64,000 bases of DNA. Source: a virus. The translations under genes were made by a program, and so were the position numbers. This document shows positions 16,527 to 63,121 of this stretch, piece by piece (the first letter of the stretch is position 1; every line of letters starts with the position of its first letter). The stretch is from IMG/VR virus record IMGVR_UViG_3300012036_000004, positions 1 to 64,000 of that record; one strand, written 5' to 3'. The notes below the pieces were generated by a model, which had not been told where the DNA came from, searched no databases, and saw only the letters and a list, made by a program, of their open reading frames with translations.

Positions 16527-16987
16527 GGATTCTCCGGGGTCGGGGTCGGTGTGCGAAGGCCCCCTGCCTCAAGGGCTGCGTCGATGCCACGCGACACTGT
16601 GTCTTTGGCGAGGTTTCGTGGCGACAGCTTGCGTGCATGCCCCAGCGCCTCAGAACCGCCTTGCAGAGCTTCACGCAATCGCTGCGCACGCTCGTCTTGC
16701 GCCATCTCCTCAGGTGGTGCAGGCGGCGAAGCTTCCTCGGGCATCTGACTGGACTCCAACGCCGTCAGCATCGCGATGTCCTCAGAAGTCAACTCTGTAG
16801 GCATGTCAACCCGCGGCGAGGCGGGAGGCGGCATCGAGAGCAGCGCCTCTACGGGAAGCGTTGACTCGCCCGGGACTTGGAGTACGTCCTCTTCGGGCGG
16901 CGCTTGCGCAGACGGCTCTTTTTCGGGGCGGTCCTGCTCAGACGGCTCGCTGTTCTTCTTCGAATTGTCTTTGGATTCTTCAGCCAC
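16523..16987 (-). CDS. Pro/Glu-rich hypothetical protein
   Basis: GGAGG RBS before GTG 16987. Confidence 0.6.
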   Translation of the reverse strand: MAEESKDNSKKNSEPSEQDRPEKEPSAQAPPEEDVLQVPGESTLPVEALLSMPPPASPRVDMPTELTSEDIAMLTALESSQMPEEASPPAPPEEMAQDERAQRLREALQGGSEALGHARKLSPRNLAKDTVSRGIDAALEAGGLRTPTPTPENP

Positions 16988-36640: not shown

Positions 36641-37292
36641 CGTACCCTCCAACGCCAGGGTTTCTCAGTTTCTTCGTTACGTTCACTCCGTCCGACAAAG
36701 ACCACGCGGTTCCGCCGGCCGCCAGTGCTTTGCCGGGCGTGCCCCGCGCCACTTCGGATGCCCGGTGACCAACGTTCGACATCATGCGTCGACCCGGAGA
36801 CATGCCTTCAGTCTTCGCCGCGTGTGTTGCAGCTCGCTCTGCTTTGGCTGTTTGAGACTTCACCGCGCTTGCCTGACGTCGGTTGGAGAAGAAGTTTCGA
36901 CTCTTCTTTCCGAAGTTGCTACTCCCTTTTCCGCCAGCTTTCCCAACCCCTTTGATGGCTTTCCCAACCCCTTTGATGACTTTCCCAACCCCTTTGGCGA
37001 AAAATTTCCCGCCCTGAATCAGCGGACTCAGTAACGCGATTTTCTCCATGTCCTCCGGAGTTGGGTGAAGCAGTGCTTGACGGAGCATTGCGGTCTTGAT
37101 GGAGGGGGCACCCATATCGATGCCCAGACGAGACGCGGCGTCCTGTCCGAACAGGGACGTGGGTTCACCCCACGTGAGCGGTTCGAGCCCATACAGGTTA
37201 TCGCCTTTGAGCTCCCGAATACCTTTGGGCTCGGAAGGCTCTTCCGTGATTCCCTCGAGCAGTTCTTTGACTCCGGTGATCTTCTTTTCCAT
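36633..37292 (-). CDS. Protein between the RNAP genes: acidic N-terminus, cationic amphipathic C-terminus
   Basis: TAATG coupling; IKTA and EKIA motifs; 21-nt repeat encoding KGVGK(V/A)I. Confidence 0.7.
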   Translation of the reverse strand: MEKKITGVKELLEGITEEPSEPKGIRELKGDNLYGLEPLTWGEPTSLFGQDAASRLGIDMGAPSIKTAMLRQALLHPTPEDMEKIALLSPLIQGGKFFAKGVGKVIKGVGKAIKGVGKAGGKGSSNFGKKSRNFFSNRRQASAVKSQTAKAERAATHAAKTEGMSPGRRMMSNVGHRASEVARGTPGKALAAGGTAWSLSDGVNVTKKLRNPGVGGYGA

Positions 37293-40200
37293 TAGGTCCT
37301 CTGAATCTTAACGGGGGTGCTCATCTTGATTTCGCCGCGTTTGTACGCTGCCATCGCATCGGCTTTCGAGTCAAAGACGCGCGTCTCGCCTTGCGGACCC
37401 TCTCGAGTTGCCATGTACGTCCCGATCAGCGCTTCGTGTGCCGGGAAGACCATGAGGTCATCCTTGGATACATCGCCGAGAAGAAGGTTGGACAGCGTCA
37501 TGCTCTTCGACTCAGATACGGCGGCGTCTGCCACAGGGACATGCAGCTGCACGGTGTCGCCATCATAGTCGGCGTTCATGCCTTGTTCTGCAAATGGATT
37601 CAGTCGAACGGTCTTGCCCGGGATGAGTTTCGGATACGCAGAAATGAGCCCAAATCGGTGCAGCGTGGGGGCTCGGTTCATGACGACAGGCCGTTTCTTG
37701 ACTTCGGTACCCAGGATGCGTCGAGCCGCCGGGTCTCGGTTCTTCACTTTCTTGCGGGCGTCTGCTGCGCGGTGCCCTGACTGGACCAGTCCTTTGACGA
37801 GGAAAGGTTCGTACATCTTCCAGGCCATCTCCTCAGGCATACCGACCTCGTCCATGTTCAGGTTGAGATCCGGAGCAATGGTTGCGCGGCCCGACAGGTC
37901 CTGACGTCGCTTCATCATGCGCGACTGGAAGTACCCATGCTTCGGCGAGCCGGTGCCTGTGATTTGCTGAAGATGCCCCTTCGTTCCTCGCCCCTGGTTC
38001 TGCGGAGACACGGGGTCATTGAAGCCGAACAAAGCACCGACCGAGTCGTGCAGGTGTTTGCGTCGCTTCTTCCGATCGTCATCGGTGTCGAGCTCCTCGG
38101 GCGTCTCGGTAATGGACTCGTTTGCCAGCATCACGTCTCGGTACAGGTAGTTTGCATCCGAGATGAGCATGGTCCCGTCGCTCGTGGGCATGATGGGGCG
38201 AATCGTCGGAGGCACGACCGGTACCTTCGACAGCACATAGGCGTCGCCCGCGGTCAGGTCTTCTTTGAGCAGAGCGTCGATGTACTTGATGCGCTTGACG
38301 GCATCGTCGAGCGTCGCGCCTCGAGCCGTTTTAATCTCCTGCTTCAGCTTCCGGCGTTCGCTCTTCAGGTCGATCTCGTTGAGCTTCTTTTTGACCTCAG
38401 ACGCCCCCTTGTCATCTCGGAATGCGCGGAATTCATTCTTCGTCATCCCCAGCATCCGACGGGCCGGGTCTTCGAACACCGGATTCACCACCGGCTCCGC
38501 CAGGTTAATCTTGGAGTACTTCGTGCCGGTCAGTCCGCCTGTCAGCGCGGGGTCAAACAGCCCTCCCTCCTCAGGCTGGAGCTGTGTAACGCCCTGGCGT
38601 TTCCGCGGCGTCACGAGCAGTGCGTTCTTCACTTCGGTCTTTGCCATCGAGTCGATGTCGCGGTCGGTGAGCGGGGCCAGGCTGTGTCGTGAACCCTTCT
38701 TGTTCACTTTGATGCCTGCTCCGTGCAGCATGTGATTGAACTTCTCGTAAGCGAAGTTCTCGCTCGGCATCGGAGCTGGAAGACCCAGTTGAATGCGGCG
38801 CCAGTACTCGTCGTTACGCTGTCCTTTAACGACCGCAGCCTCCTGCAGCACGTTTCGAGCGTTGTGCGCAAGGAGTGCGTTGAACTCCATCTTGCCCAGG
38901 GACTTCGCCCCCTCGTCACCGCCTTTGGTGGGCTGCATGTTGGAGTCGTACCCGGGGCCAATACCGCGAGCAGCGAAGTTGGTGTCGGTCGACTTGAACA
39001 GTTTGTAGGTGTACTGCCTCCCCACGTGGATGCCTGGGATTTTCTTTCCCGACATCGGGTCGTACACGGTTTCCTTGTCCTTGAGTCCGTTGTCCTTGAG
39101 TAGCTTCTTCGCCCACTTCACGTTGTCGTGGTCGGCGAACTGATCGATGATGACTGGCTTGCCTGTCTTTTCAGCGACCTTGCCGACCGCCGTCTCGAGA
39201 ATCTGACTGGGGTTGATTCGAGTGATCACGCCTGCAGACGTCATCAACACGTCGATCGGCTTGCCGGCCTCGTCTTTCACCATCTGGTCGTCCGGGACGA
39301 TCTTAGACACCACGCCTTTGTTCCCGTAACGCCCGGCCATTTTGTCCCCTACACCCATTGGCGCGTCCATCTTCACCGTGACGGTGATTTGTTTGTTGGT
39401 GACTGCGACGTCAATCACGGTGCCGGGATGGTCGTGATCCCACGTAATGGCCGCGTCCCGGTAAGGCTTCACCAGTGACTTGTGCAAGTTCCCCAGCATC
39501 TGCTGCTGGGCAGATGCCTGATCTTTTCGGATCGCAGAGATGAGGAGCTCACCGTGGTCCACCTGCTGGCCCTTCTTGATGATTCCCTTGGAGTCGAGCC
39601 GTTCGTACTCCGGACGCGAGTAGCGCGAGCCGAAGTAGGCCCGGTGCTTGTCCTTGTCTGTGGAGACCCCCTGGTCCAGCGACAGCGTCTCTTTGTACAT
39701 GTGCCTCGAAGTCAGCTTCTTGGACGCAGACTCCGAGATCACGACAGCGTCGTTGGAGTTGTAACCGTAGTAGGGCATGTATCCCACCGACAGATTCTTC
39801 CCCAGAGCAAGCGTTCCGTTGCGAGTGAAGTTGGTCTCCGCCAGGGCCTGCCCCTGTTGGACTCGCTGGCCTTTCTTCACGTTGACGTCGTCGTGCATGT
39901 ACGTCTTGGACATCAAGGGGAAGTCCGTAGCGTAAGGCACCTTGACGAGATCGTCTGTCTTGGCCGCGGCGGTCTTCATCCATGCAGAAAGGGATTTTTC
40001 CTGAGGCCCTTCAGCGCTTCGCTTGGAGCGATCAGGTCGGATGTAGATGTAGTCTTTGTCGATCTTCTCCACAGTGCCAGCGGTCGGCGACATGGGAACG
40101 ATGAGCTCACCCATCTGTTTCTCGACAGTCTTCTCCGGGTCCCACGACCGAATTTGTACATAAGGCTCGTCTCGATCAATGAGCGGCAACGCCTGGGTGT

Positions 40201-41746
40201 GCATCTTGGACCCCATGATGTTTCGGTTGCCCTGCGCGCTGTTCAAAAACGGCACGAGATTCGTCGTCGGGCTGTACATCCGGGAGGGGTCGGGGACTTC
40301 ATAGTCCACCTCCGAAGAGTTTACTGAGTAAACCTGTCCGTTCTTCAGTGCGTCGATCTTCTTGCGCCCGCCCAGCTTCTGGTTCGGGAACGCGACGGTT
40401 TTCTCCATCAGCTTCGACGCCTTCACGTACTCGAGTTTCCCGTTCTTGGTGTTGCGCATCTGGGCGTACATGTTTCCTTCGTCGTCACGCCGAGCGAACA
40501 TCGAAGTTCGCACATCGATGCCTGCTTTCCCTGATTCGGGCGTTCGCACCGGGTCAAGGATACCCAGATGGGAGTGATGCACGTCTCGAGCTTCGTCTGG
40601 TACGGCCAAAGTCGACGAAATACCCCCCTCACCTAGCGAGGTGACTTTAACGGCATGATCAACGATCTCCATCGGATTTATCTGCATCGGCGTCGCAGTG
40701 AGTGCGGACGTCGTCACAAAAGAGTGGAGGGATTTCGTGAAAGGAGACGACGGCATGATGTCCGAGACCTTCGGATTGTCCCCGGCCTTCCGAAGACGCA
40801 TCTTGACCTTTCGAGAGATGTCTGGCGCTGCGTCTTTCTCAACTCGTTCCTTCAAAAACGACTCAACCGTGTGGATGGTCTTGAACGCAGTCGAGTCTCG
40901 ATCGTCCTGCTCCTCTTTGTCGTTGTAGACGTTCAGAATCTTCTGACTGGCTCGCAGAAGCGTCTTGGGTTCGACCTTAGAGAACTTCTGACCCAGCGTG
41001 ATGTTGGTGACCTCCGGATCGAGCTGCGTACGGTCGTACGAGTCCCGGATCGCCTCCAACATCTCCTGGTGATTCGGGTTGTCCTCCTGCAGAAAGCTTG
41101 GAATGAGCTTTTTGTAGAGCTTTCGGACGTACCGAGCTTCCTTGCCGGCGGCGTACTTCTTGTTGAGTTGAAGTACGTCCTTGCCCCAATACTTGGTGAT
41201 CTCTGTATCCCGCACCCCCAGGGCTGACAGGGCCCCGTAGAGCGGAATCTTGCTTGAGCCGTACTCCATGAAGATGAGACCGCGGTCTGGGTCGAGCGAC
41301 AACCGGAAGTTACGTCCCTTGGCGAGGTTGAATGCGGACTCGAGCTCTCCGTTGCCGCGCTGCCGTGTGTAGACCCCGGGCTTGATTCGAACCTGGTTGG
41401 AGACGGTGTAGTCATTGCCCTTCATGATGAAGGTGTGCCGCTCTGTGAAGTACGGGATCTGCGCCAGAGTTCGCTTGCTCGTATCCAGTATCTTACCCGT
41501 CTTCTTGTCACGAACAACGACCGTACCCTTCATCGGCTCGACCAAGGTCTTGCCCTCCAGGATGGCTTTCTTCTGCTCGGAGGGAGAGAACACTTTGTTC
41601 GTCGGTTCGACGTCCTGAATCTCCACAATGTGCTTATCTGTCTCGACCCGAAAGTCCTGAATCCCCTTCCTGACGTGGTCTCGAATCATCTCACGCCGTT
41701 CTTCAGCGCGCCCCATCAGGGGATAGAGTGTTGGGTTTTTCGCCAC
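37292..41746 (-). CDS. RNA polymerase beta - beta' N-terminal fusion (catalytic subunit)
   Basis: Beta motifs: RTPESG, MGSKMHTQA, GYNSNDA, GDKMAGRYGNKGV, RINPSQ, GKMEFNAL. Beta' motifs: PVVPP.IRP, D.SGRATI, NRAPTLHR, NADYDGD. Confidence 0.95.
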   Translation of the reverse strand: MAKNPTLYPLMGRAEERREMIRDHVRKGIQDFRVETDKHIVEIQDVEPTNKVFSPSEQKKAILEGKTLVEPMKGTVVVRDKKTGKILDTSKRTLAQIPYFTERHTFIMKGNDYTVSNQVRIKPGVYTRQRGNGELESAFNLAKGRNFRLSLDPDRGLIFMEYGSSKIPLYGALSALGVRDTEITKYWGKDVLQLNKKYAAGKEARYVRKLYKKLIPSFLQEDNPNHQEMLEAIRDSYDRTQLDPEVTNITLGQKFSKVEPKTLLRASQKILNVYNDKEEQDDRDSTAFKTIHTVESFLKERVEKDAAPDISRKVKMRLRKAGDNPKVSDIMPSSPFTKSLHSFVTTSALTATPMQINPMEIVDHAVKVTSLGEGGISSTLAVPDEARDVHHSHLGILDPVRTPESGKAGIDVRTSMFARRDDEGNMYAQMRNTKNGKLEYVKASKLMEKTVAFPNQKLGGRKKIDALKNGQVYSVNSSEVDYEVPDPSRMYSPTTNLVPFLNSAQGNRNIMGSKMHTQALPLIDRDEPYVQIRSWDPEKTVEKQMGELIVPMSPTAGTVEKIDKDYIYIRPDRSKRSAEGPQEKSLSAWMKTAAAKTDDLVKVPYATDFPLMSKTYMHDDVNVKKGQRVQQGQALAETNFTRNGTLALGKNLSVGYMPYYGYNSNDAVVISESASKKLTSRHMYKETLSLDQGVSTDKDKHRAYFGSRYSRPEYERLDSKGIIKKGQQVDHGELLISAIRKDQASAQQQMLGNLHKSLVKPYRDAAITWDHDHPGTVIDVAVTNKQITVTVKMDAPMGVGDKMAGRYGNKGVVSKIVPDDQMVKDEAGKPIDVLMTSAGVITRINPSQILETAVGKVAEKTGKPVIIDQFADHDNVKWAKKLLKDNGLKDKETVYDPMSGKKIPGIHVGRQYTYKLFKSTDTNFAARGIGPGYDSNMQPTKGGDEGAKSLGKMEFNALLAHNARNVLQEAAVVKGQRNDEYWRRIQLGLPAPMPSENFAYEKFNHMLHGAGIKVNKKGSRHSLAPLTDRDIDSMAKTEVKNALLVTPRKRQGVTQLQPEEGGLFDPALTGGLTGTKYSKINLAEPVVNPVFEDPARRMLGMTKNEFRAFRDDKGASEVKKKLNEIDLKSERRKLKQEIKTARGATLDDAVKRIKYIDALLKEDLTAGDAYVLSKVPVVPPTIRPIMPTSDGTMLISDANYLYRDVMLANESITETPEELDTDDDRKKRRKHLHDSVGALFGFNDPVSPQNQGRGTKGHLQQITGTGSPKHGYFQSRMMKRRQDLSGRATIAPDLNLNMDEVGMPEEMAWKMYEPFLVKGLVQSGHRAADARKKVKNRDPAARRILGTEVKKRPVVMNRAPTLHRFGLISAYPKLIPGKTVRLNPFAEQGMNADYDGDTVQLHVPVADAAVSESKSMTLSNLLLGDVSKDDLMVFPAHEALIGTYMATREGPQGETRVFDSKADAMAAYKRGEIKMSTPVKIQRT

Positions 41747-44294: not shown

Positions 44295-46016
44295 TTAGCT
44301 CACCATCTCCTGCGCTGCGTTTCGTTCCTGCAGCTGAATCTCTTCGAGTCGTTGAATGACGACGGAGTACATGACGTAGTCTTCGGCCTGTAGCGAAGAG
44401 AGCACCGAACGGCGCTGTCCTTCGTCGATCTGGCTGAGCTCCATCGCCATCTGATCGGCCTCGGCGATGACGGCCTGCTGATCGTACTCGAGACCTGTCG
44501 ATCCTGCAGAAGCCTCGGCCTGCGCCTGGTCTGCGAGCGTCGACTGCAGCTCTTCCATCTTTCGGCTGAGCTTCGCCTGTCGTCGCGTCTGCTCGAGCAT
44601 CTCCTGTTCTTTTTGCTCGATCTCGTCGTCGTAATCGAGGTCGAGAATCTCCGATACGGTGCGTCGCGACACCAGGTCGTACTGCGCGTCCGCCTGCATG
44701 ATGAGAGACTTCTGCTGAATATCGTCGATGAACTTGAAGTTCGTGATATCCGCCGAAACTTTCGCCCATCCGAGGTAGTCTGCAATCGAGTCGCAGATCC
44801 ACTGTAGCAGGTCTCTGAGGTCAGCTGAGTGCGACAACAGCTGATTCTCCAGCATCCGTAATGTGACCGAACTTCCGGTAAAAGAGAGTCCCCCATATAG
44901 GAACTCCCGAGGCACGCCCAGACCGGCGATGATGTTGTTCTCGACTTCCTGCACCTCTCCGAGCGTCAAGAGCGTGCGGCCCTGTCCGCCCATCTGCGTG
45001 ACGCCCAGCGCAACCGGGGCGAACATGATATGGAGCGGGTCTTTTCGCCACTGCTTGATGTTCTGCTTGGTCTCGTCAATCCACTGCGCAAAGGCCAGTG
45101 TTTTGACGGGGTCGTTACTGCTCCCCGTCTGGGCGGGGTGAAGTACACGGAACGGCGTGAGGTGATCGAGTGCAATCGCTTCGTTCGACCTCCGCATGAC
45201 CTCCGCGTAGTAGAACTGCTTCATCACCGAGATCACTGATGGATAGCCCAGTGCTCCTCCAAGCCCCGCCGGTACGTCGCCTTTGAGGTGAAAGATTTTC
45301 GTGGGGTCGAAATGGAAAACCTGGTCGTCGTCCGCGGCTTCCAGGAACGCTTTCGGCGTCCCGTCGATCATGTGCCGATCTCCGTCCTTGATGGCGCTTC
45401 TCAGTTCCGCCGGGAGATCATAGTAATACTCAGTGTTGCCTGTGATGGGGTTGTGTTCGACGTCGATGTGTTTGGGGTCCCAGCAGATGACGTTCATGCG
45501 CTTGGGGTCATACACCTTGACGTCGCGCACCTCGCTCAGACGCGTCGTCGACGACGCCTTGCACTGCATGCAGTTGTACTTGAACGTTCGCTTCTTGTAG
45601 TCGAACTTGTAGTCTTTGATGCGCCGAATGTCCCACATCATCCCGCAGCCTTTGCACGGGACGATGCGTTTGAACGGGAAGTACAGAGAGTAAAAAGCGT
45701 TCCCGTACAGGGTGCGGTTCTTGGACGCACCCTTCAGCACCACCTTCGCCCGAAGAGTCTCGAGCACAATCTCGGAGTACTTCGTTCGGAGCGACTCGGA
45801 CTCCGTCTTGAACGTGATGTCCGTGATGACGTAGTCAGCGAGTTTTTGAAGAGCGATGAAAATGTGGGGGGAGTTGTAGTAAATATACTCCGTCCACCGG
45901 TACATATCCTTCAACTTCCGAGGGACGAAGCCCGTCAGAAAATTGAACATCGGGTTCGGATGCGCATTCGACTGCCCGAGAATGTCGAAAGGCTCTCTGC
46001 TGATATCACCACTCAT
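44295..46016 (-). CDS. Portal protein
   Basis: 573 aa; TLYGNAF; CxxC...CxxC insert; IFHLK; IIAGLGVPREFLYGG typical of portals. Confidence 0.8.
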   Translation of the reverse strand: MSGDISREPFDILGQSNAHPNPMFNFLTGFVPRKLKDMYRWTEYIYYNSPHIFIALQKLADYVITDITFKTESESLRTKYSEIVLETLRAKVVLKGASKNRTLYGNAFYSLYFPFKRIVPCKGCGMMWDIRRIKDYKFDYKKRTFKYNCMQCKASSTTRLSEVRDVKVYDPKRMNVICWDPKHIDVEHNPITGNTEYYYDLPAELRSAIKDGDRHMIDGTPKAFLEAADDDQVFHFDPTKIFHLKGDVPAGLGGALGYPSVISVMKQFYYAEVMRRSNEAIALDHLTPFRVLHPAQTGSSNDPVKTLAFAQWIDETKQNIKQWRKDPLHIMFAPVALGVTQMGGQGRTLLTLGEVQEVENNIIAGLGVPREFLYGGLSFTGSSVTLRMLENQLLSHSADLRDLLQWICDSIADYLGWAKVSADITNFKFIDDIQQKSLIMQADAQYDLVSRRTVSEILDLDYDDEIEQKEQEMLEQTRRQAKLSRKMEELQSTLADQAQAEASAGSTGLEYDQQAVIAEADQMAMELSQIDEGQRRSVLSSLQAEDYVMYSVVIQRLEEIQLQERNAAQEMVS

Positions 46017-46044: not shown

Positions 46045-48210
46045 ATGCAACCTATACGACTGCAACTGATTCGTCACCATAATACACCGGTGTTCGCCAC
46101 AAAAGACGATCACTCAGATTTGAATCGAGTGTATGGCTACACTCGAGTTCGCAAGATGGGCCTCGCCCTCTTCCCCGCATTTCTCCCATTCTCCGAGCAC
46201 GTGGTCAACGACCTCAACATCGTGTACGGCGAGGAGAACCTGGACTGGGCACTGGCTGCAAAGAACCACCTTGCCGAGTTAGAGAACGAAAAGCGTCGAC
46301 AGAACTCTGAGAGCTTACCGGCTGGCTTCGAGTTCGTCACGGAGCCGTTCGGCCACCAGCGAGAAGGTGTGATACGCGCCATATACGAGCCGCGCACCGC
46401 GTTGTATTTCGACTGCGGTCTCGGCAAGACCAAAACGGCTATCGATCTCATCCGTGCGTTGAAGTGCAAGATCTCCGACATGCGTGCCCTGGTTATCTGT
46501 CCGCCGCACCTTGCGCCGAACTGGGAAGAAGAGTTCGCTACGCATGATGATGGCGAACTTCGCGTCCGAACGCTACTCGACCACAACTCCAAAACGCTTG
46601 GGTCAAAGAAGCGGCGCCATGCCTATCATGGGACGCGTAAGCACGAGCCGAGTTGGCACCCAGACGAGCCGTGGGGTGAGCTCTTTCCCGATGTCGTATA
46701 CGAACCCAGCCCTGACCGCGCCTTCCGTGTCGCTGGTGGCGATAACGAACTCGACTACCTGAAAGCGACGCAACGCGACGACTCCGACGAGCGCGGACGA
46801 GCTCGAGCTCGAATGCGTCGTCACGCCAAGAAGAGGGGCATCGACTTGCCTGCTCCTGCAAAACGAGTCAATCCGGCTCCCGAGCCTGTCAAGAACTTCG
46901 ATGTGTTGGTGTTGCCATACTCAGTGCTCAAGAAGGATCTCAATCACATCCTGGACGCCTATCCCTACAACGTCCTGATCTGTGATGAATCGCACATGCT
47001 CCGCTCCCACAAATCGAACCGGTCGAAGGCTGTCCTGAAGTTGGGCGCCAAAGCGAGTCATCGCTACTTGTTGTCCGGGACCCCGGCACTCGGAACGCCG
47101 ATGCATCTCTACGTGCAGCTTCGTTTGCTCGGCGGATTCCTGACCGGCACCTGGTGGGAGTTCTACAAGCGCTACAATGTAGCCATCCGACGCCAGCACC
47201 GAGGCGTTGAGCATGACGAGGTCGTGGCCTACAAGAACCTCAACGTGCTCAATGAGATTGTCACCGAAGTGGCGCTTCGTAAGAAAGCCGATGACTGCCT
47301 CGACCTTCCGCCGGTCCGCACGTTGACCTATCCAATCTATCCCAGCGACGAGACCAAGGAGATGTACAACGAACTCGTCCGAACACACTCTGCAGCGATT
47401 GGTGGTCGACAGATCCGTGTGGCGCACGCTGCAGATCGATTGACGAAGCTACTCCAGGTGTTGTCCGGGTTCATCATCGACTCGCAGAAGGACTACGAGC
47501 TCTGCGATGGCGGCGACGACCGTCCGCCCTGCCCTCATCTGATGGACTGCGTTCGCAACAAAATCAACCCCTACACGCCCAAGTGTGCAATCGTGCAGGA
47601 GGACCCGCCCAAGCTTACCGAGTTGTTGGACGCGCAGGACAGGTGCGACCAGAGCATGGAGCTCTTTGAGTCCATCCTGTCCTCGGACGACAACAAGGTC
47701 ATCGTGTGGGCCACCTTCCAGGCGGAGCTCAACATGTTGGACGCAGCTTTCACGAAGGAGGGTTGGGACTTTGTCCGCGTCGACGGGAACACCAAAGACA
47801 AGCAGGCGGCCAAGAAGCGCTTCAACACGGACCCGAACTGTCGCATCTACCTGAGCCAGATCCGCACAGGTGTCGGCATCACGCTGAACGCGGCCAACTA
47901 CACCGTGTTCTATAACGCCACTTTCGACCTGGGTGATTACATTCAGGCGCAGAAGCGAAACGACCGGATCGGACAGGAGCGTCCAGTGACGGTTTACCAG
48001 CTGGTTGTTCCTGGTAGTGTGAACGAGTATATTTTCCGTTCCTTGGAGCGAAAAGAAGATATTTCTGCTGCCCTCACCGACCACGTTCAGTGTATACTGT
48101 GCGACCGCAATAAGGAGTGCGACGCTGCCGGAATCCAGCCGTTCGACAAAGACTGCATCTACTCGTCGAAGGAAGGCCGACTGCGAATGCGCCCTGCGCT
48201 GCTTAAATAG
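46045..48210 (+). CDS. SNF2/DEAD-like (SF2) helicase
   Basis: DCGLGKT; DESH; LSGTP; GVGITL; QAQKRNDRIGQ. Confidence 0.9.
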   Translation: MQPIRLQLIRHHNTPVFATKDDHSDLNRVYGYTRVRKMGLALFPAFLPFSEHVVNDLNIVYGEENLDWALAAKNHLAELENEKRRQNSESLPAGFEFVTEPFGHQREGVIRAIYEPRTALYFDCGLGKTKTAIDLIRALKCKISDMRALVICPPHLAPNWEEEFATHDDGELRVRTLLDHNSKTLGSKKRRHAYHGTRKHEPSWHPDEPWGELFPDVVYEPSPDRAFRVAGGDNELDYLKATQRDDSDERGRARARMRRHAKKRGIDLPAPAKRVNPAPEPVKNFDVLVLPYSVLKKDLNHILDAYPYNVLICDESHMLRSHKSNRSKAVLKLGAKASHRYLLSGTPALGTPMHLYVQLRLLGGFLTGTWWEFYKRYNVAIRRQHRGVEHDEVVAYKNLNVLNEIVTEVALRKKADDCLDLPPVRTLTYPIYPSDETKEMYNELVRTHSAAIGGRQIRVAHAADRLTKLLQVLSGFIIDSQKDYELCDGGDDRPPCPHLMDCVRNKINPYTPKCAIVQEDPPKLTELLDAQDRCDQSMELFESILSSDDNKVIVWATFQAELNMLDAAFTKEGWDFVRVDGNTKDKQAAKKRFNTDPNCRIYLSQIRTGVGITLNAANYTVFYNATFDLGDYIQAQKRNDRIGQERPVTVYQLVVPGSVNEYIFRSLERKEDISAALTDHVQCILCDRNKECDAAGIQPFDKDCIYSSKEGRLRMRPALLK

Positions 48211-51959: not shown

Positions 51960-52102
51960 TGTTGACGAGTGGGGAGGTCTATCGCTACAACGATAGACCT
52001 CCTGCCTGGCAGCAGAGGAAAACAAACTAGACAGTCCACCCGGAGCGTATTCCTCACTCCGAATGTATACGTGTGTCTGTCGAACACCCTTGGAGAAAGA
52101 TA

Positions 52103-52972
52103 ATGACAACTGAACTCGTTCTCACCGAAACCGTCCCCGCACTCGCGAATTACGAACTGACTGCGGAGATGGAGCAGCAACTCGAGGACCTCGTTTTCCT
52201 GATGACGACGCCTCCCATGGGTCTGGAGAACACGGACTGGGAATGGCGTCCCGACATCGTAAAAATCAAGGCCCCTACAACTACAGACGACGCCTGTCCC
52301 GGTAACGCCGAGATCGGCGACATCTGGGCTGCAGGCGAGATCCTGTGGTCACGCAAAGAAGATGGGAAAGACGAGCCGTTTCGGTTCATCCCGATCTATC
52401 ACTGGAAGCAGCACTCGAAGTTCGTCTACGGAAAGCGCCAGCCGGACTGCTCGAGCCCCGATGGTGTGACCGCTTATGACGGTACGCCGTGCGTGGAGTG
52501 TCCACACCTGCCGTGGAAGGGTAGCGCGAAAGTGCGTCCTGGAAGCGACAAGACCGCATGCGATGAGACGTTCTCGTTTCTCGTGATGGCCGAAGACATG
52601 AGCAACTTCTACGTGCTCAACTTCCGCGGCACCTCCGCCAAAGCAGGCAAGAACATCTTGCGCAACACACGCCGCGCGCTGTGGGGCAAGGTGTACGGCC
52701 TGACGTCCGTCGAGCAATCAACCGACACGAACACCTGGCAGAAGTATGACGTGGCCCCGATCTCGGGCTCTCGTCCTGCTCCCGAGGTTCAAGCGTTCGC
52801 ACGCTTCGTCCACGAGCAGAAAGACCAGGCCGCAAAAGCTCAGAGCGCCGAGCTCAAGGCCGCGCGTGAGGCCATCGAGAAGACGCTCAATGCCGACCTC
52901 GAAGAAGGCGGCGCCATCGATGACCTCGAAGCCGAGCTCAACGCAGACGATGGGTTCAGCGAGTCGATGTAG
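52103..52972 (+). CDS. Putative ssDNA-binding/annealing protein
   Basis: Replication-block position; CSSPDG...C..C...C; acidic C-terminal tail; own terminator. Confidence 0.5.
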   Translation: MTTELVLTETVPALANYELTAEMEQQLEDLVFLMTTPPMGLENTDWEWRPDIVKIKAPTTTDDACPGNAEIGDIWAAGEILWSRKEDGKDEPFRFIPIYHWKQHSKFVYGKRQPDCSSPDGVTAYDGTPCVECPHLPWKGSAKVRPGSDKTACDETFSFLVMAEDMSNFYVLNFRGTSAKAGKNILRNTRRALWGKVYGLTSVEQSTDTNTWQKYDVAPISGSRPAPEVQAFARFVHEQKDQAAKAQSAELKAAREAIEKTLNADLEEGGAIDDLEAELNADDGFSESM

Positions 52973-53843: not shown

Positions 53844-56800
53844 GTGTCAAAATCATATAAAGTCCTGTCCCGGCAGGAGAAGTCGAAAATGCTTGCTGAC
53901 GTCGGCATCGAAGACGTCCTAGCTCTCTGCCAAGAAGCTCGCCCCTCGCATCAATGCGAACGGCACGGCAACCGAATCCGTTCGCGCTGCATGTTTCCAG
54001 GGCACTCGGACGCCAACCCTTCGATGGACATTGTGTTCACTGAGGGCCGTGTTTTCGCCAAGTGTTTCAGTTGCGGTCAGTATGAGTCTGACGGCTTTCG
54101 CATCGTTGAGCACATCACCGGCATCCACGCCGTTTCGCGACTGTACGCCGAGATATTCGGACAGCGCTTCGGTCTCAAAGTCGACGCCGAGTTGGACGAC
54201 GCGCTCGTCCAGGAAGACCTGTTTAGTCACTTCAAGAACTCGGTGCTGCGTGCCGGCGAACACCTTCTCGTCAACGCCTCATCCACCAAAAGTAAAGAGT
54301 ACACCTACGCCCAAAGCGCGATCACCTATCTGGCCCAGCGAGGCTTCCCAGCAACCACGTTCCTGACATTGGGTATTGGCATCTTCCCGACGCTCGAGCA
54401 CTTCGCTCAGCACGCAGACCAAGACGCACAGATCACCATTGGTGAGTATTTCGGCCCTCGTGTCTTCGAGCAGAAGCCCAAGGCCGTCGGGCGCTACGGT
54501 GGTTGGTTGATGTTTCCCTACTACACCTCACCCACGACGATCGGTCGCCTCAAACTGCGTGACCCCAAGAACAAGGACAATGAAGTCTGGCTGGGTATCC
54601 ACAAGGAAGAGACGCGCGGCTTCTTCGGACTCAACCAGTTCACCACTCTCGTAGGTAAAGACCTCAAGGAAGCCAAAACGGCGTATGTCGTCGAAGGGGA
54701 GTTCGACCAACTGGCGATGTTGCAGGCGCAGTTAAACCTGAACCCCAACCAGCAGCACATTGTGCTCGGCGGCTCAGGCTCGGCTCCGACCAGCTTGGAC
54801 ATCCTGGCTGATTCCCGTATCAGCCGAGTCACGCTCGTGGGAGACAACGATGCGGGCGGCGACCAATTCGTTCGACGCATCCTGGAAGTGTCCGAGCAGG
54901 AACGTATCCACGACTTCGGGGTCTACGACTGGTCGACCCTGCAGACGTATGGCGATCCTGACGACGTCGTTCAAGGTGGGGATTACCCGGACCTCATCCA
55001 CGGCCTCACCACACGCAGTGACGTCAAAGAGCTCCATATGTGGGCGATGGATACCGCCCTCAAAGAGATCGCGACGCTGAGCTCTCCGAGCTCTGTCGAG
55101 AAGATTGACGTGCTCGACAAGGGCTGCGCGTTCATCAAGAACGACGTCGAGCGCGGGTTGTACGTTTCCGAAGTGTCGGCCACGACAGGTCTCGACGGCG
55201 GCGTGCTCTCAAAGCACATGATCTCTATCGACACCGAGCGAGGTTTCCTGGTCGCGCTCGAGCGTAAGCTGGGTGAGCACGCCTCGCCTGTTGCGATGAA
55301 GAACTCAGAAACGGCGCTGATGTTCTGTCGAAACTCGAACGAGATATTCGAGGTCAACCTCAAGAAGCCGCGCGACATCGAGCTTGCTCTGCAAATGCAG
55401 GTCTTCGGATGCACGACCTACGACTTCGTCGAAGAGAACATCGGCATCCCTGACCGCGTTCGCTACACCCAGGGAAAGGTCCCGACTGAGCGTCCCATCA
55501 ATCACCAGGCCAAAGACCTGTCCGGTCACGTCGACCTCGCCGTGCAGAACTTCGTGGCAGGCTCCAAGCCCTTGTCCAAGTACCGAGTGCGGCGACAGGG
55601 CGTTCACTGGAGCGATGTGACCGAAGACCCGGTACGAGCCGAGGGTCTCCCCTCCAGCGCTCCTGCCCGCTGCGTTTACGTCGTAAACGGCCACCTTCGT
55701 CTCATGGGTACGCCCGGCTCAAACGGCCTGATGTACTACGAGGAGCTGTCTGAGCCTGTTCATGGCCTCAATCTGTTGTGGGGAGACGACGAACCTTGGA
55801 GCGCAATGCTCACAAGCGCTGACTCCGCCAATAAAAAGCCCAAGCACACGCGCAAGGAAGTCTACGAACTTCTCCTGGACGTAGTAGACGGGTGGGCTTT
55901 TGAGCGGCACGACCTGGTCCGTCATTTCTGGGCGGCCTACATCATGATGCTGACGCATTGCGACATCTTCGAGAACCTGCCGTACGTGCTGCTGAACGCG
56001 CCTTCGCAGTCAGGTAAATCAACGATGCTCAAAGGTGTTCTTCGCGGAGAGGACCCGGGAGAGATTGGCCTCATCGAACACAGCCGAGGCTACGATGACT
56101 ACACCGCCGCTGCCGTCATGCAGCACGCTGAGGGCTCGCCCATTCTGATGGGTCTCGAAGAGTTCGAGGCGGCAGACGACGCCAGCCGCAATGATTCCAA
56201 GGCCCGAGCAGTCCGCGCCATCCTAGCCTCTGTGCGAAACGCCAGCGGCCGAAAAGGGATGCAACGCTCTCGCGGCGGTCGCTACGGGACCCCATCCGAT
56301 ACGCACCTCCGTTTCCCGATCTCCGGGGCCGCCATTCAGCCTCTGCAAGAAGAGGCCGACCGAAACCGGTGGTTCACCTTCGAGCTGACGCAGCAGCCAG
56401 GCAAGCTTCCGCCCGAAGCCTACATCCGTCAGAAGCTGGGCTGGGACGGCGTCTCCGACCTTCGCGAATCGATCCTGTTGAACTCACTACAACACGCGCA
56501 CCGAGACTACCTTTCGGAGCAAGATATTCTGCAGAACGTGTGGGACAAGGACGTCCTGACGACCCGCTCGACTCGAGGCGCAAAGTCTGTGGCGCCCATC
56601 TTGACCATCATGAAAGACGTGGAGGTCGACTACCTGAGCTGGGGGCAAACCTTTCTGGACTGGCGTAGCGATTTGCTGCGTGCATCGAACACGTCCGCCG
56701 AGCGGACAATGTTCCTGGCCGTCTTCGAAACCAACGCCATCACGATTCCGAACGAGTTCCAGCGTCGAAGCCTCATCAACATTCTCGCCAACCCCGATCT

Positions 56801-57131
56801 GCGAAACCATCTAAGCTACGCAGACTGCGGAGCGTACTACCTGCCGGGGGCGACTTTCGTCGTGCTGTACCCCAAGAAGATTGCCGAGATTCTCAAGTAC
56901 AACGCCAACTACCGCCACTCCACGAACGCCAACCAGATCTTCAATCACCTCAAAAGAAACCCCGAGGTGAAATACGATCCGCCGTTCTTCAACGGGAGCA
57001 AAAAGACGATGCAGCACCTGCGTCAGTTTATGCCGAGTGTCCGCGCTGAGGATCTTCTCGCGGTGTCATTCCAGGCATTGGACTTCGACAAAGCGCCGCT
57101 CCTGCCCCCTGACCCGGACACCGTACTATGA
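53844..57131 (+). CDS. DNA primase (CHC2 Zn finger + TOPRIM) fused to a P-loop helicase-like domain
   Basis: C..PGH.D.NPS...CFSC; VVEGEFD; GDNDAGG; APSQSGKST. Confidence 0.85.
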   Translation: MSKSYKVLSRQEKSKMLADVGIEDVLALCQEARPSHQCERHGNRIRSRCMFPGHSDANPSMDIVFTEGRVFAKCFSCGQYESDGFRIVEHITGIHAVSRLYAEIFGQRFGLKVDAELDDALVQEDLFSHFKNSVLRAGEHLLVNASSTKSKEYTYAQSAITYLAQRGFPATTFLTLGIGIFPTLEHFAQHADQDAQITIGEYFGPRVFEQKPKAVGRYGGWLMFPYYTSPTTIGRLKLRDPKNKDNEVWLGIHKEETRGFFGLNQFTTLVGKDLKEAKTAYVVEGEFDQLAMLQAQLNLNPNQQHIVLGGSGSAPTSLDILADSRISRVTLVGDNDAGGDQFVRRILEVSEQERIHDFGVYDWSTLQTYGDPDDVVQGGDYPDLIHGLTTRSDVKELHMWAMDTALKEIATLSSPSSVEKIDVLDKGCAFIKNDVERGLYVSEVSATTGLDGGVLSKHMISIDTERGFLVALERKLGEHASPVAMKNSETALMFCRNSNEIFEVNLKKPRDIELALQMQVFGCTTYDFVEENIGIPDRVRYTQGKVPTERPINHQAKDLSGHVDLAVQNFVAGSKPLSKYRVRRQGVHWSDVTEDPVRAEGLPSSAPARCVYVVNGHLRLMGTPGSNGLMYYEELSEPVHGLNLLWGDDEPWSAMLTSADSANKKPKHTRKEVYELLLDVVDGWAFERHDLVRHFWAAYIMMLTHCDIFENLPYVLLNAPSQSGKSTMLKGVLRGEDPGEIGLIEHSRGYDDYTAAAVMQHAEGSPILMGLEEFEAADDASRNDSKARAVRAILASVRNASGRKGMQRSRGGRYGTPSDTHLRFPISGAAIQPLQEEADRNRWFTFELTQQPGKLPPEAYIRQKLGWDGVSDLRESILLNSLQHAHRDYLSEQDILQNVWDKDVLTTRSTRGAKSVAPILTIMKDVEVDYLSWGQTFLDWRSDLLRASNTSAERTMFLAVFETNAITIPNEFQRRSLINILANPDLRNHLSYADCGAYYLPGATFVVLYPKKIAEILKYNANYRHSTNANQIFNHLKRNPEVKYDPPFFNGSKKTMQHLRQFMPSVRAEDLLAVSFQALDFDKAPLLPPDPDTVL

Positions 57132-57484
57132 CCACCCTCAAAGAGAGCATGGACACCGAGAAGCTGAACAATCAGCTCCTCAACCTGACCAACGACCTCA
57201 ACGGAGTCCTTGGTCTTCGAGCCCTATCTTCCACCGCCGCCGAGATATGGGTCACTGGTGGCAGCACCAAAAACGAGGTGCTCGCCCGCGCCGAAGAGCA
57301 TGAAGAGCTGGCTGACGTAGACTTCACCTTCCGAGAAGAAGTCGACGAAGCCTACTCGCCCGGCGGCGCCACTGACCGACCTCGAACCTGGGAACCTAAA
57401 AATGACGACCGAGACAACGACACCGACCCCTTCGAAGAACTACTCGAGCGCGATCCAAGCAGCCCCCGCACGGTGGACGAGTAA
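57128..57484 (+). CDS. Hypothetical protein
   Basis: ATGA coupling with primase; overlaps the polymerase start. Confidence 0.55.
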   Translation: MTTLKESMDTEKLNNQLLNLTNDLNGVLGLRALSSTAAEIWVTGGSTKNEVLARAEEHEELADVDFTFREEVDEAYSPGGATDRPRTWEPKNDDRDNDTDPFEELLERDPSSPRTVDE

Positions 57485-60400
57485 CCAAAAGGGGACCTTC
57501 TGTAGTACCTGCCCCAACAAAGACGCTTCGTGCCTGCTGATGGGCCGCTGGTTGAGTCAGGCGAGCATGACCATCATCCTGGCATCGCCGGGGCAAGAAT
57601 CCATCGACCGTGTGCAGCCGCTGGGGAGCCGAGACGAAGCAATCATCGCGCAGCTCATGCAGAACCTGACCGAGAAGCACGGTACAGCCATCGCCTACAA
57701 CATCGTGTATTTGACAGGAGCAGAATCCCGAAAAGCCCCCGGCAAAGAGGTGATCGCTGCTTGCTCGCAGTACATGAACCAGAAGCTGCTCGACGCGCGT
57801 CGACAATTCGAACACGGCCCGCATGCAGGTCGAAACCACGTCCTGGTTCCGCTGGGAAAAGCCTGCACGCAGGCACTTCTTCCTGACGTACGAACCCTCA
57901 AAGAGGTTCGCGGAAAAACTGTCGCCACCGAATTCGGTGGGTACGAGTGGTTGGTCTGTCCGACGTTCAGCAGAGCGCAGCTCTACGTCAAGCCGGGCTA
58001 CGCTCGAGTGATGAGTCACGACATCTCCAAAGCCTACACGCTGTCCCTCAAAGAGGGGCGCGAGGATAAGGTCGACGTCCACTCACTGACGACCGACTAC
58101 ATCATTCCGCAGAACATCGAAGAGGTGCGCGACGTTTGCACTGACCTGCTCGAGCGTATCGAATCTGGCGACATCACTGCGATGAGCGTCGACATCGAGA
58201 CGAACACCAAGAACCCGTATCGCACTGACGGTCACACCTCGGTCGTCTCGCTGGCCTGGGACAAGGGGCAGGCTACCGCCATCCTCCTTGACCACCCTCG
58301 CTCCTACTACGACGCCGAAGAAGCGTGGGAAGCTGTGATTCCCATCCTGGAAAGCGACGTCAAGAAAATCTTCCACAACGGAAAGTTCGATCTCCAGTTC
58401 CTGCGAAACCGCAAAGGACTCAAGGTCCCCAACCTGTGGTGGGATACCATTCTTGCCGAGCACTTCCTCGACGAGGACAAGAGCGGTGTCTACGGCCTCA
58501 AAGAGGTCATCGGGCTCTACGCTCCCCGTTACATGGGCTACGAGAAAGAACTTCGAGCGAACTTCGTCAAGAAGGCGCTGGCCGAAGCTAAGGGTCTCGG
58601 AGAAGACGAAGACCGCGAACCCGACCACGAAGAATCATGGGAGATCATGCCCTTCTTCGCTGACCTCGAATACAAGCCAGTTGCCGAAGACGACAGCATC
58701 GACTGGGAAAGTCTTGGAGAGGACGTCCGTATTGAACTCTTCGAGAACGAAGTGATTTACCTCAACGCGCACCGCGACGGCGAGAAGAAGTCGAAGACTC
58801 GCGCACGAGGTCGCATCCGACGGCGCTGCAAGAAGTACGACCTCGACCCGCCTGACACCGTCAACGACCGCTCCTTCGACGTCGGCGACAATGGCTACGA
58901 CGACATCCCGGTCGACATGCTCCTGTGGTACGCCGCAGTCGACGCTGACGTAACGAGACAGGTATGCGCCGGGCAACGCATGATTGCCGCCCGACGCCAG
59001 CGAGACCTGGGCATGACCACGCCGAATGTCACGCTCCAACGAGACCTGGAGAACGTGATGGCCGACCTGTACGTGCCTGGAACGGATTCACTGTCCACCA
59101 TGTCGTATCGAGGCACCAAGCTCGACTACGATCTGCTCGACCAATACGAAGAAGAGATCGGCCAACTTCGAGACGACACACTTCGCATCATCCGAGAGAT
59201 GGTGTGCCAGCCCGAGTTCAATCCGAACTCCAGCGCCGAGATGGCAGACCTGGTGGTCAACGTCTTGAGCATCGACCCCGATGCGTTCACCTACACTGCC
59301 ACGGGAGCCATCAGCGTCACGGACGCCTGGTTGGCTACACAGCAGGAAGAGTGCGCCGACGAGTTCACGCAGGAAGTCATCTACTACATACGCCTTTACA
59401 AGAAGGCAGCGAAGACGATCTCGTCATTCCTCGCGAAGTTCCGTCGGTTGACTCAGTACGACGGACGTATCCACACCTCGTTCAATCTGAACGGAACCGC
59501 GACTGGTCGGCTGTCTTCTTCGTCGCCCAACCTGCAGAACGTTCCACTGTGGATGTGTCGATTCCCGCCGCACCCCAAGTTCACGAAGGTCTCGAGCCCG
59601 GGGTGGAACATCAAGGCATTGTTCATCCCGAGCGAGCCCGGAAAAGTGTACTTCCAGCTCGATATCTCGGCAGCCGAGATTCGCGTGCTCTGCGCCTACG
59701 CAGGCGACGAGCGTCTGATTTCGGCGCTCAAAGCTGGTCAGGATATTCACTCCTTCGTGGCCTCGCACGTGTTCGACCATACCTACGAAGAGTTCGTGGC
59801 TGGAAAGGACACCGACCCCGACCTCAAGCTGAAGCGAACCGCTACCAAACGCGTGGTGTTCGGCCTGATTTACGGCGCCGGTCCCTACAAGATTGCCGAG
59901 CAGATCTACGGCGGTCTGGCTACCGACGAAGCCGAGCGTGAAACGCAGATTGCCTTCGCGCAGTCTGTCATGGACATGGTCTTCGAGCGCTTCCCGAAGA
60001 TTCAGGAGTACATCTCCAAGACCATCGCGGAGGTCCAACTGTTCGACCAGGTCCGAACGTACTTCGGGCGACGTCGTCGCTTCGACCTTCGAAACGCCTC
60101 CTGGAAGGAAGCTCGGAAGAGCGAGCGCCAGGCGGTCAACTTCAAAATCCAATCGTCGGCTTCTGACATCGTCCTCTCGCAGCTCTGTGCGGTCGAGCAA
60201 GCCATCAAAGAGATTAGCGGAGAAGTGCTCCTCACGGTGCATGACTCCATCGCCGGGGAAATCGATGTCGACAAGGTGCCACTGATGCGTGCCTTCTTCG
60301 ACCACTATGTCGTGGACGAAGTGAAGCGAAAGTTCCCCTGGCTGCCCGTTCCGTTCGCCTACGACCTCGAAGTTGGACCTTCGTATGGTGAGCTCGTCGA

Positions 60401-60509
60401 CTTCGGCCTGCTCGAATCCGATCCGGACGACATCCCGGACTACGTCCTCAAGAAAGCCCGTCCTCGCATGGAGCGGGCAGGGCTCACCTTCTTCTCGGAG
60501 ACCGCCTGA
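57402..60509 (+). CDS. Family A DNA polymerase with N-terminal UDG-like domain and 3'-5' exonuclease
   Basis: CSTCP N-terminus; DIET, HNGKFD, YAAVD; TATGRLSS..PNLQN; DISAAEIR; K.VVFGLIYG; VHDS. Confidence 0.95.
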   Translation: MTTETTTPTPSKNYSSAIQAAPARWTSNQKGTFCSTCPNKDASCLLMGRWLSQASMTIILASPGQESIDRVQPLGSRDEAIIAQLMQNLTEKHGTAIAYNIVYLTGAESRKAPGKEVIAACSQYMNQKLLDARRQFEHGPHAGRNHVLVPLGKACTQALLPDVRTLKEVRGKTVATEFGGYEWLVCPTFSRAQLYVKPGYARVMSHDISKAYTLSLKEGREDKVDVHSLTTDYIIPQNIEEVRDVCTDLLERIESGDITAMSVDIETNTKNPYRTDGHTSVVSLAWDKGQATAILLDHPRSYYDAEEAWEAVIPILESDVKKIFHNGKFDLQFLRNRKGLKVPNLWWDTILAEHFLDEDKSGVYGLKEVIGLYAPRYMGYEKELRANFVKKALAEAKGLGEDEDREPDHEESWEIMPFFADLEYKPVAEDDSIDWESLGEDVRIELFENEVIYLNAHRDGEKKSKTRARGRIRRRCKKYDLDPPDTVNDRSFDVGDNGYDDIPVDMLLWYAAVDADVTRQVCAGQRMIAARRQRDLGMTTPNVTLQRDLENVMADLYVPGTDSLSTMSYRGTKLDYDLLDQYEEEIGQLRDDTLRIIREMVCQPEFNPNSSAEMADLVVNVLSIDPDAFTYTATGAISVTDAWLATQQEECADEFTQEVIYYIRLYKKAAKTISSFLAKFRRLTQYDGRIHTSFNLNGTATGRLSSSSPNLQNVPLWMCRFPPHPKFTKVSSPGWNIKALFIPSEPGKVYFQLDISAAEIRVLCAYAGDERLISALKAGQDIHSFVASHVFDHTYEEFVAGKDTDPDLKLKRTATKRVVFGLIYGAGPYKIAEQIYGGLATDEAERETQIAFAQSVMDMVFERFPKIQEYISKTIAEVQLFDQVRTYFGRRRRFDLRNASWKEARKSERQAVNFKIQSSASDIVLSQLCAVEQAIKEISGEVLLTVHDSIAGEIDVDKVPLMRAFFDHYVVDEVKRKFPWLPVPFAYDLEVGPSYGELVDFGLLESDPDDIPDYVLKKARPRMERAGLTFFSETA

Positions 60510-60805
60510 TGCCTATTTACGCCCTCGCCATGGAGACACCCGGTCGCTACATAGTCGGCCAGAGCAGTGCCGCCCCTGACGCTATCCTGTCGACGAACAC
60601 CGTCGCTCTTCAGGACGCCGCTCACCTCACGGTGCTCAAAGAACAGAGCATCCTGACGCCGATCGACGTGCTCGATAACTTCCACGCGAAGGTGTCGAGC
60701 TACATTGGCTTCGGGGTGCTCAACGAAGACTTCAGTTCCATCTACGAGTCGTGGCTCGAGATGCACAAAAATCCGCCGGATTTTGAGGTACAAGAGGGTG
60801 AATGA
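60509..60805 (+). CDS. Hypothetical protein
   Basis: TGATG coupling to the polymerase gene. Confidence 0.65.
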   Translation: MPIYALAMETPGRYIVGQSSAAPDAILSTNTVALQDAAHLTVLKEQSILTPIDVLDNFHAKVSSYIGFGVLNEDFSSIYESWLEMHKNPPDFEVQEGE

Positions 60806-62925: not shown

Positions 62926-63121
62926 GAAACTACTCAAGTTTGCAATTCTAGCGTGGGCAGCGATCGCGCTTCTCGGCGCGTGCATTGCCCACCCGGGTCT
63001 CGTGTTCCTGCTTATCATCGCAGGCACGCTTTACGGCCTGTTCACTCTCACGTTTGGGTCTCTCGATTACTGGCGTCGTTACCACGACCACGTATACGGA
63101 GACTCGAGCGATCACCAATAA
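62924..63121 (+). CDS. Small two-TM membrane protein
   Basis: Two hydrophobic segments followed by a polar tail. Confidence 0.55.
   Translation: MKLLKFAILAWAAIALLGACIAHPGLVFLLIIAGTLYGLFTLTFGSLDYWRRYHDHVYGDSSDHQ

Follow-up and report, generated by a model that had tools for sequence, protein, structure and literature searches.

A helical-hairpin module shared by the SNF2-family helicase and the DNA polymerase of an uncultured phage clade

The helicase and polymerase inserts

The stretch of DNA analysed here (the window, 64,000 nucleotides (nt)) is the first 64 kb of the virus record IMGVR_UViG_3300012036_000004 (101,735 bp, GC 58.8%). Its replication block, at 46-61 kb, encodes a SNF2-family helicase and a family A DNA polymerase, two unrelated enzymes that share an internal segment, termed here the module, of 69 amino acids (aa) in the helicase and 79 aa in the polymerase. 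We describe the two copies, their likely origin and the roles that they may have.

The helicase coding sequence (46045..48210, + strand) specifies 721 aa from the ATG at 46045. Residue numbers follow P0002, for which the open reading frame (ORF) is open from a TTG at 45943; the database copy of the protein, P0005, begins at M35. Pfam finds SNF2-rel_dom (PF00176, E=7e-28) and Helicase_C (PF00271, E=5e-10), and the GLGKT and DESH motifs of an SNF2 ATPase are present. Foldseek searches with the full helicase model returned generic SNF2 enzymes only, headed by Mot1, ISW1/ISWI and CSB (E<=6e-26). Members of the helicase family also have two invariant four-cysteine clusters, C521/C530/C536/C548 and C717/C720/C726/C738 (aa 521-548 and 717-738 of P0002), which are probably zinc-binding elements; the first cluster lies between the two lobes of the ATPase, in a region of low confidence.

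Lobe 1 of the helicase carries a clade-specific insert (46576..46875, + strand; aa 212-311) between motif Ia and the strand that precedes motif Ic/II. When aligned with Mot1, the insertion site spans 19 residues in Mot1 versus 111 in the window helicase. An insert of ~95 aa occurs between motif Ia and motif II in 16 helicase homologs (43-100% identity), giving a distance from Walker A to motif II of 206-217 aa as compared with 114-167 aa in the nearest outgroups, and the next-nearest helicases (at most 40% identity) do not have it. The helicase copy of the module is found within this insert at 46645..46851 (+ strand; aa 235-303) and comprises an N-terminal motif, EP..W..F-PD-h-x-Y-x-P, followed by a linker, helix A and the basic helix B. 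It sits between motif Ia (CPPHL) and motif II (DESH), and a first-pass annotation made from the DNA letters had correctly placed it between motif Ia and the Walker B.

The polymerase (P0003; 57402..60509, + strand; 1035 aa) consists of an N-terminal domain resembling uracil-DNA glycosylase (UDG), a 3'-5' exonuclease domain and a family A polymerase domain. Pfam matches DNA_pol_A (PF00476, E=7e-70) and DNA_pol_A_exo1 (PF01612, E=2e-14), and the mean predicted local distance difference test score (pLDDT) of its AlphaFold2 (AF2) model is 82.5. PF03167 is found on close homologs such as P0107 and P0108, and not on P0003 itself at E<=0.01; together with PF01612 and PF00476, a conserved N-terminal cysteine motif is present, and P0003 is accordingly placed with the UDG-fused family A polymerases, which join a family 4 UDG-like N-terminal domain to a DEDD exonuclease and a PolA domain. 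The N-terminal residues W25, C34, C37 and C44 are kept in relatives. A 118-aa ORF (57128-57484, + strand) overlaps the first 83 nt of the polymerase coding sequence, and since the polymerase N-terminus is conserved in relatives the start at 57402 is preferred and this ORF may not be a gene.

The polymerase copy of the module (58617..58853, + strand; aa 406-484) follows Exo II (HNGKFD) and precedes the Exo III helix (YAAVDAD), and 11 polymerase homologs have a matching segment in that position. It ends ~25 residues ahead of YAAVDAD, and the alignment with Klenow starts just past it. The module is thus in the proofreading domain, between Exo II and Exo III, and not at the tip of the thumb as in a T7-type insertion. 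At the other end of the protein (60380-60509, + strand), clade polymerases run on for another 35-45 aa past the canonical end (..EVGPSYGEL), and among the nearest relatives this extension finishes in ..AGL(T/S)(F/Y)F plus acidic residues. Most outgroup polymerases stop a little beyond the canonical end. We considered a common C-terminal polymerase tail throughout the clade and rejected it, the extension being variable.

Homology of the two copies

The first-pass annotation had reported a gapless 36-aa alignment of the two proteins with 15 identities, and counting on the in-frame translations gives the same result. In the helicase this 36-aa core covers residues 268-303 of P0002 (nt 46744-46851), and the polymerase peptide assigned to 58746-58853 is exact and in frame. 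For the helicase module a range of 46670-46851 had been given, the end of which is right and the start of which is 2 nt out of the ORF frame. Both cores are preceded, as had been noted, by W-x3/4-F-x-D-x2-Y-x-P, in the form W244..F248-P-D250..Y253-E-P255 in the helicase and W413..F419-A-D421..Y424-K-P426 in the polymerase.

A single helicase/polymerase pair does not give a significant match by BLASTP (E=1.6). A hidden Markov model (HMM) made from the 16 helicase inserts only was searched against the 1451 six-frame ORFs of the same genome and found the polymerase at 35 bits (E=1.2e-9), the next best match having E=0.85. The polymerase-only HMM in turn found the helicase copy in its own genome at E=2.4e-6. 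Across the wider set these reciprocal HMMs matched every one of the 11 clade polymerases and of the 16 insert-bearing helicases, with 0 matches among non-carriers. In a shuffled control run at profile level the polymerase segment scored 40.1 bits, compared with a maximum of 11.2 bits in 2000 shuffles of its own residues; the helicase copy scores 148.7 bits with the A3 profile. Furthermore, the conserved columns of the two families coincide at Y253/Y424, E269/E450, Y272/Y453, R288/R469 and K297/K478. By these sequence comparisons the helicase insert and the polymerase insert are homologous, and the proposal that one module is present in two unrelated enzymes holds, with invariant residues common to both.

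Fold and charge of the module

From its N-terminus the module is made up of an aromatic/proline cap, a variable and mostly acidic linker, the acidic helix A, a short acidic turn and the basic helix B. The cap has the motif EP-D..W..F-F-P-D-h-x-Y-x-P, helix A the pattern E-L-F-x-L-E-x-x-Y-L-x-A, and helix B the pattern K-x-S-A-R-G-K-h-R-R-R-A/C-K-K-x-G-h-x-L-P. AF2 models of the full-length enzymes have the same order of elements in both copies: a short helix comes first, followed by a beta bridge and then by helices A and B with a turn between them. The module pLDDT values are 75-92 in the helicase and 83-93 in the polymerase. The predicted content amounts to one short helix plus three or four helices, at residues 244-247, 259-264, 266-277 and 281-298 of the helicase and 416-419, 435-438, 440-458 and 462-478 of the polymerase. 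According to these models the module is ordered and has the same layout in both hosts.

In the helicase, helix A (46738..46773, + strand; aa 266-277, the NELDYLKATQRD region) contains the invariant E269 and Y272, as assigned from AF2 and column counts. The basic helix B (46783..46836, + strand; aa 281-298, from AF2) has an average net charge of +4.9. Counted over 29 sequences, R288 is present in 29/29 and is never K, and position 297 is K in 24/29 and never R; at several other sites of helix B it is charge rather than position that is conserved. The AF2 helices A and B of the polymerase copy span 58719..58835 (+ strand; aa 440-458 and the basic 462-478), where E450, Y453 and R469 are invariant and K478 is nearly so. 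The charge is about -3 for the cap and about -4 to -5 for the linker taken together with helix A, as against +5 to +7.5 for helix B. As the charges of the cap and helix A oppose those of helix B, the net charge of the module is roughly zero or slightly negative, and the module forms a charge dipole.

Distribution, origin and selection

Among 1.84 billion representative proteins, 18 matched a profile built from eight module segments at E<=0.001, and every one of these is either ~700 aa long with the match at 180-290 or ~1000 aa long with the match at 390-500. Among the 12 new matches, sequence motifs identify 2 helicases and 5 polymerases, the other 5 fitting by length and match position only. 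In ~1.2 Mb of related viral and metagenomic loci the module is carried by helicase and polymerase genes only, and exactly two copies are present in each of four related virus records, one of which is a 156-kb relative that is 95% complete. No standalone form was found in the searched proteins and related loci. The module had been described beforehand as a portable tag, which does not agree with a search that reached only two enzyme families of one small phage clade; with 18 matches in two enzyme classes and two copies per related genome, it is not broadly portable.

No described domain was matched in Pfam, among PDB sequences or with the HRDC profile. Pfam searches of both proteins gave no family for the module, and the isolated modules gave sub-threshold noise only at E<=10. 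A PDB sequence profile search with the module returned nothing at E<=10, and the ESM Atlas had no usable match for it. The HRDC profile PF00570 had no match at E<=10 in G000, G001 and G002 (control genomes were matched) or in the isolated module. Pfam intein families were absent from both proteins and from the module, and some polymerase relatives have PF14890 inteins elsewhere in the protein. Judged by these searches, the module is a mini-domain undescribed so far and confined to two enzymes of one small uncultured phage clade.

The nucleotide identity between the two cores is 57%, with third codon positions no more alike than first and second positions. The best blastn match between the copies is marginal (69% over 55 nt, E=0.03), no inverted repeats were found flanking the modules, and relatives do not keep the antisense ORFs that overlap the modules. 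Helicase and polymerase modules are no more similar within genomes than between them (6 genomes, p about 0.3, a comparison of low power). Collectively the 57% identity, the lack of inverted repeats, the unconserved antisense frames and the absence of a within-genome excess point to an old duplication followed by independent vertical descent. A mobile DNA element or recent gene conversion was considered and rejected on the nucleotide identity, repeat, copy-number and within-genome similarity data.

The module was most likely copied from the polymerase to the helicase in an ancestor of the clade. We infer this direction because outgroup helicases are empty at the site, whereas most related UDG-PolAs have some insert, charged and helical, at the polymerase site. 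A look-alike basic helix occurs in a few outgroup polymerases (e.g. ..KARGSTLRRWKKLAKAFHLPTPEP in L088). The resemblance of the outgroup polymerase inserts (L088, P0115, P0116 and P0122) to the module is suggestive by eye and not significant by HMM.

Mean identity among orthologs of the module is 36% in the helicase and 40% in the polymerase, as compared with 50-57% for the catalytic cores, 35-37% for accessory N-terminal domains and 20-23% for linkers. This pattern of conservation suggests that the module has been kept by selection in both enzymes.

Candidate partners

A 98-aa protein (60509..60805, + strand), the ATG of which overlaps the polymerase stop, has a clade-restricted acidic tail. 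It is conserved in G001 and G002 and belongs to a family of 10 clusters in which the tail NPPxFEV(E/Q)(E/D) is invariant in 10/10. Distant homologs that follow module-less outgroup polymerases (L088 9597-9920 and L094 12816-13124) do not have the tail. No match to the 98-aa protein was found in Pfam, PHROG or the PDB (sequence profile, E<=10), and the ESM Atlas gave only weak T5orf172-like leads with low shared-feature counts. A complex prediction for helicase lobe 1 plus module (aa 125-400) with the 98-aa protein gave 0.00 in both runs and counts neither way.

A 299-aa Cys-cluster protein (52073..52972, + strand) has an aromatic/acidic C-terminus, ..DGFSESM, like that of a single-stranded DNA-binding protein (SSB), and some ~30 homologs from related loci, outgroups included, all end in (P/D)(D/G)F-acidic-(L/M). 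Its relatives end in ..PDFSDL/M, and there is a weak Pfam match to Pam3_Gp34 (E=0.003). It may be a phage single-strand-binding or annealing protein; a search of the genome with PF00436 (SSB) found no match. Further replication proteins of this phage also have aromatic/acidic C-terminal tails. Based on these sequence features we infer that the acid-tailed 98-aa protein is the best candidate for a partner of the module, with the SSB-like 299-aa protein second.

Genomic setting

The replication block runs from the SNF2 helicase through a 248-aa protein of unknown function, a PD-(D/E)XK nuclease, a 219-aa protein also of unknown function, a ParB-like protein, the 299-aa Cys-cluster protein, a second PD-(D/E)XK nuclease, a 1095-aa Toprim primase and the UDG/exo/PolA polymerase to the 98-aa protein. 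It is flanked by a terminase and a fused beta-beta' RNA polymerase, and its synteny is kept in three related IMG/VR records (G001, 102 kb; G002, 156 kb and 95% complete; G003, 24 kb). The closest cultured phages have at most 28% identity, so there is no near cultured phage, and a search of reference prokaryote genomes found no close relative and hence no host lead.

Genes on the opposite strand flank the block at 44295-46016 and 61330-63027 and are among the most conserved of the region, with identities to relatives of 60% and 66-71%, respectively. The latter encodes the terminase large subunit (GpA_ATPase); the 573-aa product of the former has no family match. A single 1484-aa ORF at 37292-41746 (- strand) contains both Rpb2 (beta) and Rpb1 (beta') Pfam domains and is therefore a fused multisubunit-type RNA polymerase, the C-terminal ~890 residues of which (aa 590-1482) are 70% identical to the G001 counterpart portion in locus L007. 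The 1095-aa primase (53844-57131, + strand) has a zinc-finger/Toprim N-terminal half, and its C-terminal half contains a P-loop, NAPSQSGKST, and a Walker-B-like LMGLEEFE. It is probably a primase fused to a replicative helicase of the SF3 type; Pfam finds Toprim only. In the late gene region a 121-aa ORF (16206-16568, - strand) ends in an extremely acidic run (..EDEEDDDYGQDTFYGGEDEDEDDD).

Discussion

The reading that we consider best, with a probability of roughly 0.4, is that the module is a copied mini-domain that acts as a docking arm, either for a common partner or for its own counterpart. It would be an independently folding unit of ~70 residues in which an aromatic/proline cap is joined to an antiparallel pair of acidic and basic helices. 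Long ago it would have been duplicated within a phage genome, its source being the insert in the proofreading domain of the polymerase and its new site a surface loop in lobe 1 of the helicase ATPase, after which both enzymes would have retained it with the same invariant residues. As a protruding arm for protein docking it would tie helicase and polymerase into one replication assembly, through the binding of both arms to one partner or through the binding of the two charge-dipole hairpins to each other. Direct contact between hairpins is conceivable because an acidic helix beside a basic helix is self-complementary. A charge dipole with about zero net charge also agrees better with a protein contact than with plain DNA binding.

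Several points weigh against a docking arm. The absence of a within-genome excess of similarity, in a comparison of low power, gives no hint that the copies have co-evolved with a diverging partner common to both, and the invariant E, Y, R and K could merely hold the hairpin together. The co-occurrence of the acidic tail and the module is a single evolutionary event, and the tail of the 299-aa protein is also present in outgroups that have no module. Finally, the two host enzymes both act on DNA, and DNA may be close to each insertion site.

The main alternative, which we regard as doubtful, is a DNA-contact arm. The basic helix would touch DNA in both enzymes and so raise their affinity or processivity on a DNA structure common to them, for example a fork. 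In the polymerase the contact would be with primer or duplex close to the exonuclease site, and in the helicase with a second DNA segment beside lobe 1. Helix B, with its net charge of +5 to +7.5, is kept as charge, as such a role would favour. The helicase insertion site presumably corresponds to the loop that contains K855 of yeast Snf2. The basic patch on lobe 1 of yeast Snf2, made up of K855, R880 and K885, contacts a second DNA gyre (PMC6237416), and the polymerase copy appears by its position to be in the helix E-F region, where the DpoZ polymerase of phiVC8 has helices E1 and E2 (PMC8599892). A DNA-contact role is possible because these two elements occupy regions comparable to those of the module. 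However, the whole module is neutral to acidic, and a strongly acidic helix and linker packed beside the basic helix would be unusual for a DNA-binding element. The strict R at 288 and the K that is never R at 297 imply a specific geometry rather than generic phosphate contacts, and the conserved aromatic/proline cap has no obvious DNA-binding role. It is these features, namely the acidic helix and linker beside the basic helix, the fixed identity of R288 and K297 and the retention of the cap in two host folds, that lead us to favour a docking arm over simple DNA binding. A purely structural role would also account for part of the data. A charge-zippered hairpin would have been copied once, and each host fold would have come to depend on it, so that its roles are now enzyme-specific, for example as a lid that covers the exonuclease site and as a brace for lobe 1. 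E269, Y272, R288 and K297 are well suited to holding the acidic and basic helices together, both copies are predicted to be ordered in their hosts, only two carriers in one clade are found, and the lack of a within-genome excess agrees with separate roles. Nevertheless the whole 70-aa pattern, including the cap, is still recognisable in two unrelated contexts although the orthologs have meanwhile diverged to about 43-48% identity, and its retention in both hosts is more easily explained by a shared constraint; a strut therefore appears quite unlikely to us.

The first-pass annotation had allowed for recruitment to a common compartment as well as to a common partner. Targeting of the enzymes to a compartment or particle, such as a phage nucleus or the capsid, might be thought of in a phage with its own multisubunit RNA polymerase, yet that RNA polymerase, the primase, the nucleases and ParB all lack the module, exactly two carriers are present per genome even in the 95%-complete 156-kb relative, and the module is internal and folded rather than a terminal peptide. 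We regard targeting as highly improbable. Least credible of all is an in-frame mobile DNA repeat, in the manner of the Rickettsia palindromic elements, or a chance likeness of low-complexity basic stretches. The weak pairwise BLASTP value agrees with that account, but the profile and shuffle tests are significant, the DNA likeness is marginal and without flanking inverted repeats, the antisense frames are unconserved and there are no further copies. The Rickettsia elements do resemble the module in that unrelated proteins of a single genome contain the same peptide segment; they differ in being multi-copy, with nucleotide identity and palindromic ends, whereas here there are two copies conserved at the protein level.

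Other known systems share features with the docking arm that we favour. Lineage-specific inserts in replication enzymes, e.g. the thioredoxin-binding domain of T7, often hold the replisome together. In T7 gp5, thioredoxin and the acidic tails at the C-termini of gp4 and gp2.5 dock on this domain and on basic patches. The T7 insert and the polymerase copy are alike in being lineage-specific inserts in phage family A polymerases, the former a docking site whose basic residues pair with aromatic/acidic C-terminal tails of further replisome proteins, and such tails are present here too. They differ in that the T7 insert is in the thumb, is loop-rich and is not found in a helicase, whereas the module is a helical hairpin in the exonuclease domain with a putative docking role. 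The partners of gp5 are given in a row of Table 1 of PMC10201439.

In the DpoZ structure of phiVC8 (PDB 7PBK) helices E1 and E2 are mobile and lie in between helices E and F of the canonical fold; they are modelled to contact the leaving nucleotide, and R161A/M165A impairs exonuclease activity (PMC8599892). They are likewise a lineage-specific helical pair in what appears to be the same region of the proofreading domain as the polymerase copy, though of only about 10 residues each, without the cap motif and without a counterpart in a helicase. The canonical exo-site contact may have its true counterpart in a conserved aromatic residue past the module (F491 region), in which case the module may be an additional insert. 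The patch on lobe 1 of yeast Snf2 is a secondary DNA contact needed for full activity (PMC6237416) and is presumably near the helicase insert site; only a few side chains of the native fold make it up, and no domain is inserted there.

The HRDC domain (PF00570), a small helical domain of ~70-80 residues, offers a parallel of another kind, being common to RecQ, an SF2 helicase, and RNase D, a DEDD 3'-5' exonuclease. HRDC probably mediates contacts with nucleic acid or protein; it is a five-helix bundle, and the AF2 models give the phage module one short helix plus three or four. The RNase D catalytic domain is of the same Pfam family as the PolA proofreading domain (PF01612). HRDC is, however, a C-terminal appendage, whereas the phage module is inserted inside catalytic domains and has no sequence match to it. 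On these comparisons the module fits best among the accessory inserts, specific to single lineages, that phage replication enzymes are known to carry, as a variant of them.

The reach of the finding is limited to about 18 representative protein clusters in one uncultured phage clade and to a putative docking function. Within that reach the module is a clean case of the transplantation of an internal domain between two catalytic domains, and it puts the same handle on two different motors of one phage, which makes it a compact target of ~70 residues for study. SNF2 helicases are common but functionally obscure in phages, and the module could reveal how they connect to DNA synthesis. More specifically, the hairpin may couple an SNF2 double-strand translocase into the phage replisome beside the polymerase, directly or via the 98-aa protein, a proposal that we put forward as speculative and, on present evidence, unlikely. 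If such a coupling device were real, the phage would have a replisome with an integral SNF2 motor, an architecture that to our knowledge has no precedent in any studied system.

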